Under the pieces are notes generated by a model that was given only the letters and a program-made list of their open reading frames with translations, was not told the origin of the DNA and made no database searches. Shown here in pieces: positions 54,240 through 60,624 of a stretch of 60,633 nucleotides of DNA (position 1 is its first letter; each line of letters begins with the position of its first letter). Made by a program: the position numbers and the translations under genes. Origin of the DNA: Escherichia phage Dru_SM1; the sequence record PP596835.1. The stretch is one strand, 5' to 3'.

Positions 54240-54730
54240 CGCACACAGCAGCACCACAGCGAGCTAAAGCTCAAAGGTAATGGTAATGCATTACCAACAC
54301 ACAACGAGCACGCTGTACCCCACAAAGCGGCGCTAATTTCAACACTCACAGGCCGTACGAGTTAACGTACAGCCTGCTCTGCTATATGCACGCCCCATAC
54401 ACAGCCAGCTCACGATATACATTAATATAATAACGAATGAAATAGATTCGTCTGGAAGAATAACAGATCTTGCAGTCACAGACCGGTCCAATGAGCCGAC
54501 TCATAGACCCCACCTAGGATCATCAGGGTACTAATAATCACCCGAGGGCGCCTTATCCATCCTGATAGTAAGTCCACGCCTAAATCTCACCTGTCACATA
54601 GCCTATCCACCTATATGCGAAGGCAGACCCGACCCACCTTAGAATCTACCCTATCAACATATTCATCATTGAAAAATCTGTGGGTTATTGCTAAAATATA
54701 GATGACAAAAAATTGATCGAAGGTATTGAA

Positions 54731-55204
54731 ATGAACTGGAATGATATATTTGAATACAGAGATGGTGTTTTGTATTGGAAGCTGAGTAGGCGATGTATAA
54801 ACGCAGGCGACAGAGCAGGATGTGTTCAAGAGGATGGATACACGAGAATAGTATTTGAAGGTAAGCAATACCTGCGACACCGCATAGTGTGGTTAATGCA
54901 CGGAAGAACTATTCCGAAAGGTATGGAAATTGATCACATTGACCATGACCGCCAAAATGACCGAATTGAAAATTTACGTTTAGTTAGTGCTGTAGTAAAC
55001 TGTCAAAATAAAGGAAAATATATCAGTAACACAAGCGGCGTCACTGGTGTAAGTTGGGACAGAAAGAATTTAAAATGGTTTGTAACTATAAGAGTGAATA
55101 AAAAGAATGTATTTTTAGGTCGTTTTGACAAATTCGATGAAGCAGTTAAGGTACGAAAGGAAGCGGAATTGCTGTATAATTTCCACGAAAATCACGGTAA
55201 ATGA
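54731..55204 (+). CDS. HNH homing endonuclease
   Basis: HNH motif IDHIDHDRQNDRIENLRL; likely start ATG 54731 (GAAGG RBS). Confidence 0.7.
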   Translation: MNWNDIFEYRDGVLYWKLSRRCINAGDRAGCVQEDGYTRIVFEGKQYLRHRIVWLMHGRTIPKGMEIDHIDHDRQNDRIENLRLVSAVVNCQNKGKYISNTSGVTGVSWDRKNLKWFVTIRVNKKNVFLGRFDKFDEAVKVRKEAELLYNFHENHGK

Positions 55205-55765: not shown

Positions 55766-55816
55766 TTATCAATCTATAATGGGCTCTACGGAGCCCTTAA
55801 TTATCTGGAGGTTGTT

Positions 55817-57035: not shown

Positions 57036-57506
57036 ATGGCTGACGTTAAAACTATTGTTGATGCAATGGACGAATCCAAAGACTGTCAACTGAAGAAGTC
57101 GTTTGAAGTAAAACAGGTTACAGAGACTCAGTTGGTCTGTAATTTTGCGCGTTATTGTGGACTGGGGCGCGGGAAAGACTGGAACGGGCTTATTGTTATG
57201 CCCACATCACAGATCCTCGTTTACGTCCGCAATATTCTTGAGGATTTATTATATCTTCAAATTGATATTGGTGACGTAGAAATTAACATGACCGCGAGCT
57301 CTACCATTGTGGTTAAATGGCAGTCGGGCGAGACACTGCGTTTGGAAGCGTGTCATTGTGCTAAGAGCTTGCACCACCTGCGCGGCTGTCATTACCAGTT
57401 TGTTGGGTTTGTACATCCGCAAGGGTTAAGCGAGCGTACGGCGCTGGTAGCGCGTTTGCTGCTGCGTCCTTATAATAACGAGCCGGAAGTCATATACGAG
57501 GCATAA
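57036..57506 (+). CDS. hypothetical protein
   Basis: 156-aa ORF. Confidence 0.4.
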   Translation: MADVKTIVDAMDESKDCQLKKSFEVKQVTETQLVCNFARYCGLGRGKDWNGLIVMPTSQILVYVRNILEDLLYLQIDIGDVEINMTASSTIVVKWQSGETLRLEACHCAKSLHHLRGCHYQFVGFVHPQGLSERTALVARLLLRPYNNEPEVIYEA

Positions 57507-57507
57507 G

Positions 57508-57714
57508 ATGGAAACTCCATTAGCTAAACAAATGATAGAGCGTGCGGATCGGGACGGTTTACCGGAAGACCATGCTATGCGTCGAACTGCCCAAGTATTT
57601 GACGAAATTAGCGTTAAATATGCGATGGGTAAGAGCACGCCTAAAGGTTTATTGGGCGCCTGGGCTCGCGCTCGGCGCTGCTGGTGCAACTACACCGGAG
57701 AACCACTTGTATGA
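57508..57714 (+). CDS. hypothetical protein
   Basis: 68-aa ORF, stop overlaps the next start (ATGA). Confidence 0.35.
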   Translation: METPLAKQMIERADRDGLPEDHAMRRTAQVFDEISVKYAMGKSTPKGLLGAWARARRCWCNYTGEPLV

Positions 57715-58133
57715 TTAAACACGTTAAACAGCCAACGTTGAATACATGCGTTTCTGCGTGTTTGGCAATGATCCTTAATAAACCTGTCGAAAAGGTCATT
57801 AAGGAATTTCACAGTCGTTATTATAACAACTGGGAAATCACTATCAGCGAATATTTGACTAAAAACGGCGTCCAGCATCATTGTTCAGAAGGTGGTGGGC
57901 GTGAAACTTTGCATATGGGAGGTTTGTTCCTGTGCACGGTGCCAAGTCTTAATATTCCTGGCGCATTGCACCAGATTGTGATTGATATGACGGATCACAA
58001 GTTTATTGTGCATGATCCAATTAAAGGATGGGAAGGTAAAAAGTTCTATGTTGGTCCGGATCAAGATCCTGAAGAGCCTGGAGCTTTTATCATTCATACT
58101 TGGGTCAAAGACGTTGAAATCCTGCCTTATTAA
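57711..58133 (+). CDS. putative papain-like cysteine peptidase (C39-like)
   Basis: ORF 57684-58133; start ATG 57711; N-terminal QPTLNTCVSACLAMIL (Gln/Cys region of C39-type peptidases) and downstream HKFIVHDP candidate catalytic His. Confidence 0.45.
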   Translation: MIKHVKQPTLNTCVSACLAMILNKPVEKVIKEFHSRYYNNWEITISEYLTKNGVQHHCSEGGGRETLHMGGLFLCTVPSLNIPGALHQIVIDMTDHKFIVHDPIKGWEGKKFYVGPDQDPEEPGAFIIHTWVKDVEILPY

Positions 58134-58195
58134 TTTTCTTGCTATCACATAACCCTTCATTGTATTGTGTACCCATCGAATAAGAGGGGTACACA

Positions 58196-58381
58196 ATGAC
58201 CAAACTATACGCCGGATTGTTTTTATTTGCGACGTTGATGTTCGCTGGGCTTTATACCTATACAGTAGTCGAACAACCTTCCACGGTTATCCGAATCTTT
58301 GCAAGTACAGGGCTTTGCATCTGTCTTATTCTGTTTGTTTTATGCATTGTTATTATCCAAGACCAAAGGAAAGTTAAATGA
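58196..58381 (+). CDS. small membrane protein
   Basis: 61-aa ORF with two hydrophobic segments. Confidence 0.35.
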   Translation: MTKLYAGLFLFATLMFAGLYTYTVVEQPSTVIRIFASTGLCICLILFVLCIVIIQDQRKVK

Positions 58382-58842
58382 CCACAATTGCGTTCGATGG
58401 AAAAGTATTAGCTGCGGACCGTGGAGTTATGCGCGGGGAAGCTGTGACTGCTTATAAGAAAGTTCATAGCGTGAATGGACATCGTGGACGTTTTTTACTG
58501 GGCTTGTGCGGCCTTACAGCATTTACCGATCAGGTGTTGCGTTATTTTAATAGCGCGGAACCTGTTAAGTTCCCTGATATTAAACTTTACAGCAAAGATG
58601 ATGATTACGGGCAAACTTGCGGTCTTGCTGTCACTCCGGAAGGCACTTGCCATTTTATTTATAACGATGGTACTTTGAGCGAACCCATGCTGGATGGATG
58701 GGGATCTGAGGGTAGCGGTTGTGTGTTTGCTGCTGGCGCGTTAGCTGCTGGTGCAAGTGCGAGCGAAGCTATTGAGTTGGCAATTAAACACACCACATGT
58801 GCATTCCTGGGAGTTGATACAATATCATTTGAGGGTTTTTAA
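58378..58842 (+). CDS. HslV/proteasome beta-subunit-like Ntn hydrolase
   Basis: 154-aa ORF; begins MTTI (Thr nucleophile directly after Met, as in HslV); GKVLAADRGVMRGEAV and GSEGSGCVFAAGALAAGASASEAIELA align by eye with HslV conserved blocks. Confidence 0.5.
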   Translation: MTTIAFDGKVLAADRGVMRGEAVTAYKKVHSVNGHRGRFLLGLCGLTAFTDQVLRYFNSAEPVKFPDIKLYSKDDDYGQTCGLAVTPEGTCHFIYNDGTLSEPMLDGWGSEGSGCVFAAGALAAGASASEAIELAIKHTTCAFLGVDTISFEGF

Positions 58843-59103
58843 ATGACTACATTCAGTCACCTGATCCCACCTGCTTATCATAGTAAGGTAGTTGACCACG
58901 GGACGCATGTTGTAATTGGTGGCGAAATCTTTATCACAGATAACGAGGAAATCGCCATTGCAATTATTGACAGCACTCAGCATGACTTTATGGTTATCCT
59001 GCAACACGAACCAGATAACTTCACTTTTTACTCCAGCTACGGGGTCGATAAAGGTGGAAAAAGTCTTGTTGCTTTCTACATTAACGACTGGTTTGACGGG
59101 TAA
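58843..59103 (+). CDS. hypothetical protein
   Basis: 86-aa ORF directly after the HslV-like gene. Confidence 0.4.
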   Translation: MTTFSHLIPPAYHSKVVDHGTHVVIGGEIFITDNEEIAIAIIDSTQHDFMVILQHEPDNFTFYSSYGVDKGGKSLVAFYINDWFDG

Positions 59104-59188: not shown

Positions 59189-59626
59189 ATGGCACTTCAA
59201 CCTCGTGGTATTCGTAATAACAATCCAGGCAATATTCGCTGGGGTGATAATTGGCAGGGCTTAGTTCCTGCTGATAAGCGAACCGATAAATCTTTTGCGC
59301 AATTCACGCAACCGATTTACGGCATTCGTGCACTAGCGAAAATCCTGACAAACTACACCAAACGTGAAGGCTTGCCCAATGTGGGTAAGAAAAACATCGA
59401 CACTGTACGTGAAATTATCGCTCGCTGGGCACCGCCTAACGAAAACGATACGGAAGCGTATATTCGCTCTGTTGCCAAAGCAATTGGTGTTCAACCTAAC
59501 GATCCAATTAATGTCTTCGACAAGGCAATTATGTCAGGATTGGTGAAAGCAATCATTCGTCATGAAAATGGCATGATGCCCTATACCGATGACGTAATTA
59601 ACCGCGCTATTGCAATGGTACTTTAA
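59189..59626 (+). CDS. putative endolysin (family not determined)
   Basis: ORF 58916-59626; likely start ATG 59189 (GGAGGAGG RBS); sits immediately upstream of holin and Rz/Rz1; no catalytic family assigned. Confidence 0.45.
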   Translation: MALQPRGIRNNNPGNIRWGDNWQGLVPADKRTDKSFAQFTQPIYGIRALAKILTNYTKREGLPNVGKKNIDTVREIIARWAPPNENDTEAYIRSVAKAIGVQPNDPINVFDKAIMSGLVKAIIRHENGMMPYTDDVINRAIAMVL

Positions 59627-59662
59627 CTGACGGGGCGTTAGCCCCTTTTATTTGGAGGGAAC

Positions 59663-60007
59663 ATGTTCAATTCACCCAACGAACATTGGGCAGTTCTAGC
59701 GGGGTTTGCGTTTATCTCCCTCATTGGGGGAGCTCTCGGTTATGTCATGCGTACAATAGACGCTGGTAAGAAAGTACGGGCAAGTATTGCGTTTCTTGAA
59801 GGCTTATCCGCCGCTTTCTTTGGCGTTATAATGTATGCGATCTACAGGGAGTTTAACATCAGCCTTTGGTTCGCTTTTGGCCTTGCTGGCCTATTTGCTT
59901 GGGCAGGTTCACGTGCTACGCTAAAAGCCCTAACGTCGCTTATAGCTTCACGGACAGGGATCAAACTCGATTCAGGGGACTGCAAACATGAAAACGATTC
60001 TAAATAA
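59663..60007 (+). CDS. putative holin
   Basis: 114-aa ORF with ~3 transmembrane segments and charged C-terminus, between endolysin and spanin genes. Confidence 0.5.
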   Translation: MFNSPNEHWAVLAGFAFISLIGGALGYVMRTIDAGKKVRASIAFLEGLSAAFFGVIMYAIYREFNISLWFAFGLAGLFAWAGSRATLKALTSLIASRTGIKLDSGDCKHENDSK

Positions 60008-60461
60008 CTTCTTCGGTTTTATAAAAACTAAACCGCGTCTGTTTATCGAGTATTTGATGATCGGCGCGGTTGTGTTTTTATGCGGGGTGGCTGCATACTT
60101 GTGGTCACAGAACGAGCTCAGCAAAACTAATTTAAATCATGCTGAGCAAAGACTAACCGTTGTAGAACGGGACAATGCAAAGCTGGGCGAAGCTGTTGTA
60201 TTTCTTGCATCCCAACGGGAGAAGGATACTGAATCCTATCGAAAATTGGCTTCAGCAATTGAAAGTGAGCAACATAACCACAGGTTGCTTCAGGACAAAT
60301 TAAAAGCACTGGAGAAAAGCAATGCCGACGTCAAAGCTTATCTTAATGAGCGTGTTCCTGATGATTTGCGCAGGCTGCTCGACGGAGATACAACCTCCAC
60401 CGCCGCAGATAGTGAAGATAAAACTTCCAGCTCATCTGTTGGTAGAATGTCGGGAAGTTGA
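59988..60461 (+). CDS. Rz: i-spanin (Rz-like)
   Basis: 157-aa ORF; N-terminal transmembrane anchor then charged coiled-coil-like region; Rz1-like gene embedded in +1 frame. Confidence 0.55.
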   Translation: MKTILNNFFGFIKTKPRLFIEYLMIGAVVFLCGVAAYLWSQNELSKTNLNHAEQRLTVVERDNAKLGEAVVFLASQREKDTESYRKLASAIESEQHNHRLLQDKLKALEKSNADVKAYLNERVPDDLRRLLDGDTTSTAADSEDKTSSSSVGRMSGS

Positions 60462-60624
60462 TAAATATCCTTTGGTTTATACGAGGGATATTATCCAACG
60501 TTTGCAGGATACAGAAACAGCTCTGACTGAATGTAAACTGAGGGTTAAGGAAATCATACGCTATGAAGCTGAAAATGTTTCGCTTGATTTTGTAGGATCA
60601 AGCAATTATATTCAGCCTAAATAG
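60322..60624 (+). CDS. Rz1: o-spanin (Rz1-like lipoprotein)
   Basis: 100-aa ORF inside the Rz gene in another frame; signal peptide with lipobox-like LMICAGC and proline run (QPPPPQ). Confidence 0.55.
   Translation: MPTSKLILMSVFLMICAGCSTEIQPPPPQIVKIKLPAHLLVECREVDKYPLVYTRDIIQRLQDTETALTECKLRVKEIIRYEAENVSLDFVGSSNYIQPK

Follow-up and report, generated by a model that had tools for sequence, protein, structure and literature searches.

Genes and identity of the window

The DNA of Escherichia phage Dru_SM1 (PP596835.1), a single stretch of 60,633 nucleotides that is called the window here, was found to contain two peptidase genes on the plus strand close to its end (Table 1). The first gene encodes a 140-amino-acid (aa) protein, predicted to be a stand-alone C39-like cysteine peptidase of papain fold, followed by the presence of a 61-aa membrane protein and of a 154-aa protein of the PPH type, a homologue of the proteasome and of HslV. 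These three open reading frames (ORFs), proposed in an initial annotation made from the letters alone, were found to be called as the same genes in the closest annotated records. Both peptidases are real and, to judge from their predicted folds and conserved residues, probably active.

The window is, by its sequence, a Seuratvirus (Queuovirinae) coliphage. The 3-kb stretch round the peptidase genes was found to be 96-98.6% identical with vB_EcoS_SA80RD, Greed, CAjan, Seurat and the BASEL isolates KurtStettler and VogelGryff, the identity with CAjan and SA80RD being ~98%. CAjan was used as the near-identical annotated twin, and SA80RD was the closest record, used for start codons and features. 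The window looks like a whole genome, with the terS, terL and portal genes at the front and the lysis cassette at the end. In records with another start point, terS and terL were found directly after the lysis cassette, and once the genome is circularised the terS of Seuratvirus lies ~2.3 kb downstream of the PPH gene.

The PPH-type threonine peptidase

The 154-aa protein was found to begin with MTTIAFDG, and its start overlaps the stop of the 61-aa ORF by 4 bases. The PHROG family matched, at 5.4e-32, was phrog_1040 ('peptidase HslV family'). When a profile built from 22 relatives was searched against the PDB, it found solved HslV at 2.5e-9, together with proteasome beta subunits and BPH. The AF2 model (pLDDT 95.6) was found by Foldseek to be closest among PDB structures to HslV, the yeast proteasome beta5 subunit and BPH (E ~3e-6, TM 0.6-0.66), at a sequence identity of ~17-20% to the solved HslV and proteasome beta5 chains. 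The likeness to HslV with an N-terminal Thr, which had been read from the letters alone, was confirmed as far above chance.

The nucleophile and its partners were found to be conserved. M1, T2, D14, G45, G112 and G114 were invariant in the 22 relatives, and K28 was conserved in at least 90% of them. The candidate catalytic residues are Thr2 (N-terminal once Met is removed), Asp14, Lys28, Gly45 and Gly112-Ser113-Gly114; in the proteasome family their counterparts are Thr1, Asp17, Lys33, the oxyanion Gly and the Gly-Ser-Gly loop. The model contained a lone helix (residues 47-58) in the first helix pair, followed by strands (80-85 among them) until the helices at 115-123 and 128-138. The collected relatives were 143-169 aa long, plus one of 206 aa, and the family was found on 140 IMG/VR viral contigs and in 59 cultured phage records.

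The PPH gene differed from that of the close relative L007 by 22 synonymous and 0 non-synonymous changes, which points to purifying selection. The protein was 100% identical in ~20 Seuratvirus records, the surrounding DNA being 95-98% identical. For a gene of an accessory region this conservation is unusually strict.

The initial annotation had also reported that no HslU-like ATPase is present, and none was found in the window. Walker A motifs in ORFs of at least 150 aa were confined to terminase L and a Sak4-like protein, the remaining matches lay in ORFs of 55-168 aa and were chance-like, and the CAjan annotation was found to list no HslU-like ATPase. Two neighbours were rejected as ATPase partners: the 86-aa protein, with a Walker-A-like 'GVDKGGKS', is too short and its motif was taken as chance, and the 156-aa upstream protein contained no Walker A motif and had no family match.

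The protein resembles HslV (ClpQ; MEROPS T1B), the peptidase of HslVU, in its Ntn/proteasome-beta fold and N-terminal Thr. It also has counterparts of Asp17, Lys33 and Gly-Ser-Gly, and the profile similarity is significant. It differs in being ~20 residues shorter than the HslV of ~175 aa, in a single helix where HslV has a pair, and in scoring 15.4 bits with the Pfam Proteasome family (PF00227), under the gathering threshold of 22.4; the HslU partner is neither adjacent nor encoded in the genome. Sequence and model thus give the protein an HslV-like predicted active site, yet place it outside HslV, because HslU is lacking, the chain is shorter, helix H2 is lost and the Pfam cut-off is missed. 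Like BPH/Anbu, it is a stand-alone proteasome-beta-like subunit without a dedicated unfoldase, and BPH was among its fold and profile matches; BPH, however, is ~190-200 aa long with both helix pairs, whereas the window protein is smaller and phage-borne.

The PPH proteins were described as viral and of ~140 residues, PPH/RPC being without helix H2 (PMC8665760). They contain no propeptide and no C-terminal extension, are found in tailed phages and prophages (Fuchs et al. 2021; PMC8665760), and were termed the first truly viral member of the proteasome family (Fuchs et al. 2021). The window protein fits PPH by every feature compared, the assignment being made from the published description: 154 aa against ~140, a Met-Thr start without propeptide, the proteasome catalytic set, a model without helix H2, and a family occurring in tailed phages.

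The C39-like cysteine peptidase

The 140-aa protein was found to begin with MIKHVKQPTLNTCVSACLAMIL. An alternative GTG start at 57684 is possible, and the closest record uses the ATG. The protein belongs to phrog_4049, which carries the PHROG label 'unknown function'. The Pfam family Peptidase_C39 (PF03412) was found to match residues 3-24 only, with an E-value of 0.053 and 13.8 bits against a cut-off of 22, and it was matched weakly by 10 of 17 family members (best E 0.005). Family profiles of 17 and 111 sequences, searched against all PDB sequences, gave nothing significant and no solved C39 domain.

The link to solved C39 structures comes from fold comparison alone, in which the closest solved structures to the predicted papain-like fold were C39 double-glycine peptidase domains. 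The pseudomurein endoisopeptidase PeiR, the C39-like protein 3ERV of B. anthracis, AvrRpt2 (C70) and the UfSP/Josephin deconjugases scored below the C39 domains as structural matches, and no link to them was found by sequence. The fold matches in BFVD were all 'uncharacterized' except one Bacillus phage 'Peptidase C39 domain' protein.

The candidate residues Gln7, Cys13, His87 and Asp102 were all found to be invariant in 17 sequences, in the C39 order Gln/Cys/His/Asp. In 111 diverse sequences Q7, H87 and D102 were invariant and C13 was at least 90% conserved. The Gln/Cys region followed by a His that was seen initially is therefore borne out by the alignments and the predicted fold. Structure prediction, which had been named as the check for both proteins, gave an Ntn/proteasome-like fold for one and a papain/C39-like fold for the other, with conserved candidate catalytic residues in both.

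Compared with close relatives, the gene contained 8 synonymous and 2 non-synonymous changes, which again points to purifying selection. The family was found to comprise 1076 clusters at 50% identity, and its best 150 matches were mostly stand-alone proteins of ~140 aa. The gene was present in 196 cultured phage records, with Kuttervirus, VP2-like Vibrio phages, and Erwinia and Pseudomonas phages among them. No transmembrane segment was found in this protein or in the PPH protein in a hydropathy scan, with no dedicated signal-peptide prediction.

From the C39 domains of PCAT/AMS (PCAT1, ComA-PEP, LahT) the protein differs in being an unfused, stand-alone chain with neither a transporter in the genome nor a conserved double-glycine substrate nearby, in its sub-threshold Pfam score and in the lack of a sequence-profile match to solved C39. 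No ABC transporter was annotated in the genome, and no conserved double-glycine leader substrate was found near the gene, the neighbouring small ORFs not being conserved across genera. Three bacteriocin-like substrates were considered, namely the 86-aa protein ('VVIGG'), the 68-aa protein ('LLGA') and a 63-aa protein of Nonagvirus ('CVGG'). They were rejected because these ORFs are unconserved, no amphipathic double-glycine leader fits and a GG dipeptide is expected by chance. By sequence and model, the protein has the fold and active site of C39 but lies outside the bacteriocin-processing C39 family, because it lacks both a transporter and a conserved leader-bearing substrate and its score stays below threshold. 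Leader-peptide processing, which had been suggested from the likeness to C39, was not upheld, and the same family is found in replication modules elsewhere.

The peptidase pair across relatives

IMG/VR viral contigs were searched with both family profiles, and co-occurrence was scored by hidden Markov models at 80 PPH loci and 17 C39-like loci. The pair was found in every Seuratvirus match and in Nonagvirus (FritzHoffmann, ESCO3), Vidquintavirus (Vid5) and Craquatrovirus (PSTCR7). In these four genera the order was always the C39-like gene followed by the PPH gene, always just before the lysis cassette, at a protein identity of 28-39%. They were the only non-lysis genes of the block common to all four genera, despite three endolysin types. 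The pair is the stable core of an accessory block whose other genes change fast and which stands immediately before the lysis and packaging genes.

The DNA between the two genes was found to be variable. In Seuratviruses of E. coli and Salmonella it contained the 61-aa membrane peptide. In Nonagvirus (L104:3424-3777) and Hafnia phage yong3 (L112:1902-2276) it contained a small helix-turn-helix (HTH) or sigma-70 region-4-like protein (weak Pfam), followed in yong3 by an unrelated 61-aa ORF, and in Vid5 it contained a SLOG protein. PSTCR7 contained nothing between the pair, and the C39-like stop and PPH start codons overlap. In a Klebsiella phage record a 'late transcriptional activator' feature, a possible homologue of the HTH gene, was found beside the PPH gene.

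The 61-aa protein was found to contain two hydrophobic segments (residues 7-25 and 28-60, by hydropathy analysis), in agreement with the two-helix membrane protein that had been proposed. It differed from a close relative by 5 synonymous and 1 non-synonymous changes, which points to purifying selection. Only two clusters at 90% identity were found among 5.8 billion proteins, both of close Seuratviruses; the homologue in STP-SP5 was 49% identical, and the 61-aa protein of yong3 in the same place is unrelated. As a conserved third component the peptide was rejected, because its relatives are limited to close Seuratviruses and it is replaced elsewhere. Judged by this distribution it is a genus-specific passenger and not a system component. 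The trio that had been envisaged as one system was therefore not supported: the order of the two peptidases is kept in four genera, and the membrane peptide gives way to HTH in Nonagvirus and yong3, to SLOG in Vid5 or to nothing in PSTCR7.

The pair had also been described as unusual for a phage of this type. It was found to be ordinary for the lineage, and its labels were already public. PPH has been published as a family, and GenBank and RefSeq records annotate the gene as 'peptidase HslV family', 'protease' or 'ATP-dependent protease'. The C39-like reading stands in at least one record, Nonagvirus ESCO3, in which the neighbouring peptidase genes bear the names 'papain-like cysteine protease' and 'proteasome subunit'. 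In the initial interpretation as a whole, the two folds, the residues, the missing HslU and the two-helix peptide thus held, and the rarity, the trio system and the leader processing did not.

The terL of PSTCR7 was 67% identical to that of the window, so the four genera are one lineage. Over the IMG/VR loci a C39-like gene within 6 kb was absent at 75 of the 80 PPH loci, the exceptions being the Seuratvirus loci and that of Pantoea phage Vid5 (L014), and PPH was absent at 13 of the 17 C39-like loci. Among cultured phages, nearly all PPH carriers fell in host groups that also carry the C39-like gene.

A literature search found no described function for PPH, Seuratvirus proteases or phage C39-like proteases, and no account of the C39-like-then-PPH order in four genera, of the stable pre-lysis core or of the contrasting family contexts. 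A paper on Avs2 that mentions Seuratvirus was found to be unrelated to these proteases. The new points are details of comparative genomics and not a new kind of system.

Gene contexts of each family in other phages

The fetched flanks of 51 of the 80 PPH loci were found to contain terminase, portal, major capsid, Ad1 or Neck1 genes. The recurrent orders were terS-terL-PPH-x-portal and capsid-x-Ad1-PPH-Hc1-Neck1-terminator. Two arrangements stood out (loci L066:6001-6516, L043, L065, L069, L079 and L081). In a group of environmental siphophages whose capsid (phrog_247) and scaffold (phrog_206) families are also those of the window, the PPH gene stands between Ad1 (head-tail adaptor) and Hc1 (head closure). 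In a second phage group it is flanked by terL on one side and, on the other, by a small methyltransferase-like gene that precedes portal.

In Kuttervirus (Salmonella phage allotria, L106:3980-4429) the C39-like gene was found exactly between the genes for the large and the medium topoisomerase II subunit, and it overlaps the second of these, downstream of it, by 4 bases. This location is odd for a protease and is possibly a clue to the substrate. In MiCath it has the RNase H gene on one side and the ligase gene on the other, and in VP2 and metagenomic loci a helicase gene lies nearby. In a Vibrio Queuovirinae phage, where no PPH was detected within 5 kb, it stands in the replication module between the genes for an ATPase and RusA. 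Elsewhere, then, PPH is a late-module gene and the C39-like gene a replication-module gene. These differing usual neighbours favour separate functions.

Probable function of the pair

The two proteins are read, with moderate confidence, as cytoplasmic accessory proteases for intracellular proteolysis of host or phage proteins, each working without the other. The observed part of this reading comprises the predicted folds, the conserved catalytic residues, the purifying selection, the gene order and the distribution. In the PPH protein, removal of Met1, presumably by the host methionine aminopeptidase, would expose Thr as the N-terminal nucleophile, which would act with Asp14, Lys28, the Gly oxyanion site and the Gly-Ser-Gly loop. 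The protein is probably a ring-shaped homo-oligomer, to judge from its homologues HslV and BPH, and it may act without a phage-encoded unfoldase. The C39-like protein would be a stand-alone cytoplasmic papain-fold endopeptidase with a Gln/Cys/His/Asp site and may cleave site-specifically. The targets would be host or phage proteins in middle-to-late infection, for host takeover or anti-defence; the targeting of host proteins is possible.

Several points count against this reading. Activity, oligomeric state, timing and substrate are proposals from predicted folds and comparative genomics, the PPH membership follows the published description of the family, and the boundaries of the transcription unit are pattern matches to consensus. 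The strict order and adjacency in four genera and the codon overlap in PSTCR7 could mean that the enzymes cooperate, and the constant place by the lysis cassette, despite swapped endolysin types, could mean a role in lysis.

One alternative is a single functional module of the C39-like and PPH proteins, possibly with SLOG, as a two-step cascade, a cut-then-degrade complex or a system against a host defence or regulatory protein. Such a module is considered unlikely. It would account for an ordered adjacency kept at 28-39% protein identity while the other non-lysis genes of the block turned over, for the stop/start overlap in PSTCR7, for the SLOG gene beside the pair in three of the four genera and for the shared host groups of cultured carriers. 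The four genera are one lineage, however, and the adjacency may be inherited synteny. Outside this lineage the genes are unlinked (75 of 80 PPH and 13 of 17 C39-like loci have no partner), the C39-like gene of the Vibrio Queuovirinae phage is a replication-module gene with no PPH detected within 5 kb, and the usual contexts of the two genes differ.

In one form of such cooperation, the conserved tandem, often with SLOG, would be a dedicated proteolytic module expressed with the lysis and late genes, in which the cysteine protease specifically cuts a host defence or regulatory protein and the ATPase-less PPH, possibly borrowing host HslU, destroys the cut protein. This is put forward as a speculation of low probability; if true, a viral proteasome homologue would for the first time have a function assigned to it.

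It is also quite improbable that both enzymes are auxiliary lysis factors, made with the endolysin and reaching the envelope through the holin lesion, which cut peptide links of the wall or envelope or set the time of lysis by degrading a lysis regulator. The place beside the lysis cassette would suit such factors, but the C39-like homologues of Kuttervirus, MiCath, BP15 and VP2 were found in replication modules, with no lysis gene among the annotated genes of these loci, and the PPH homologues elsewhere in packaging and head-neck modules. Neither peptidase showed a transmembrane segment in the hydropathy scan described above, and the membrane peptide is not conserved. No proteasome-family enzyme is known to act on peptidoglycan.

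In the least probable reading, PPH would serve morphogenesis, as a protease for the processing or clearance of head, scaffold or connector proteins or as a component of the virion, with the C39-like gene as an unrelated neighbour. This would agree with the head and packaging genes at 51 of 80 loci, with the recurrent orders terL-PPH-x-portal and Ad1-PPH-Hc1-Neck1, with the window and L066-type phages having no annotated or detected prohead protease beside scaffold phrog_206 and capsid phrog_247, and with the position ~2.3 kb upstream of terS. Accessory genes, however, often land at module boundaries, a protease is generally not needed where a scaffold and capsid of this type are used, and PPH lies outside the head module in this lineage. 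As weak evidence on the same side, the part of the text on Vid5 virion proteomics that was consulted, with 11 proteins identified, names neither PPH nor the C39-like protein among them (PMC6266253).

The locus is a convenient entry to the roles of two widespread phage protease families. Members of the C39-like phage family (>1000 clusters at 50% identity) are found in Kuttervirus, Vibrio podoviruses and Queuovirinae. Both genes are present, with intact catalytic residues and under strong purifying selection, in easily engineered phages of E. coli K-12 (the BASEL isolates of Seuratvirus and Nonagvirus).

Neighbouring genes, transcription unit and lysis cassette

Table 1. Features of the peptidase block and the lysis cassette, in positions of the window
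Feature	Position	Strand	Basis or remark
Terminator-like hairpin preceded by promoter-like sites; probable upstream unit boundary	55781..55796	+	Consensus scan, pattern match only
YspA/SLOG-family protein, 130 aa	56640..57032	+	Pfam PF10686 1.6e-18
Hypothetical protein, 156 aa, Seuratvirus-specific	57036..57506	+	phrog_25149 ('unknown function')
Accessory ORF, 68 aa	57508..57714	+	Annotated in SA80RD
Predicted stand-alone C39-like (papain-fold) cysteine peptidase, 140 aa	57711..58133	+	Candidate residues Gln7, Cys13, His87, Asp102
Protein with two hydrophobic helices, 61 aa, genus-restricted	58196..58381	+	Hydropathy
PPH-type proteasome/HslV homologue, 154 aa	58378..58842	+	phrog_1040, PDB profile, AF2, Foldseek, invariant residues
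Hypothetical protein, 86 aa, Seuratvirus-specific	58843..59103	+	phrog_23528 ('unknown function')
Endolysin (PRD1 P5-like), last gene of unit	59189..59626	+	phrog_873 1.2e-63; annotated in CAjan, SA80RD
Terminator-like GC hairpin then T run, directly after endolysin	59632..59645	+	Consensus scan, pattern match only
Holin	59663-60007	+	Pfam Phage_holin_3_3 4.8e-10
i-spanin	59988-60461	+	CAjan/SA80RD annotation
o-spanin	60322-60624	+	Pfam LysC (Rz1-like) 2.9e-12

The genes from 55817 to the end of the endolysin gene were found on the same strand, tightly packed and bracketed by the two hairpins. The SA80RD record contained a promoter and a terminator annotated at the place equivalent to the upstream hairpin. 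Should the hairpin matches be genuine, one transcript would carry both peptidase genes and the endolysin gene.

The YspA/SLOG gene was found beside the peptidase pair in Seuratvirus, Vid5 and PSTCR7, its homologues adjoining the C39-like and PPH genes in Vid5 (L014:6465-6833) and PSTCR7 (L110:4031-4546). The PSTCR7 protein carries a Cys-rich N-terminal extension, and the PHROGs label of the SLOG protein is 'GTP-binding domain'. SLOG domains bind nucleotide-derived signals in ThsA of Thoeris, and by this analogy the phage copy could be a signal sponge or a hydrolase. Scans of the block's seven genes with NCBIfam and PADLOC gave noise only, with no match to a known defence system or curated family.

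The 156-aa protein was found to be under purifying selection and without a homologue in the blocks of Nonagvirus, Vid5 and PSTCR7. No homologue of the 86-aa protein was found in the blocks of the other genera. The 68-aa ORF, which overlaps the start of the C39-like gene, was found to be an indel among near-identical phages: SA80RD- and SLUR76-like genomes carry it, and CAjan and Seurat lack it; in CAjan the C39-like gene directly follows gp83. In roughly half of the nucleotide matches ~200 query bases were missing (the matches with 93% coverage).

The endolysin at the end of the unit was found to be P5-like here, a 200-aa muramidase-like protein in Vid5 and CHAP-like in PSTCR7, with a homologous holin throughout. 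Some GenBank records mislabel the endolysin as 'structural protein P5', 'capsid protein' or 'capsid and scaffold protein'. The holin and spanins were found to contain transmembrane segments in the hydropathy scan. The N terminus of the o-spanin, MPTSKLILMSVFLMICAGCS, resembles a lipoprotein signal. In a different frame, the o-spanin gene runs through the 3′ part of the i-spanin gene and beyond it, and 9 bases of the window follow its stop.

Upstream of the block, an ORF for an HNH endonuclease with a TTG start was found at 54713-55204 (Pfam HNH_3 3.6e-17). The region near it varies among related genomes by insertions of HNH or homing endonucleases, which suggests traffic of mobile endonucleases.

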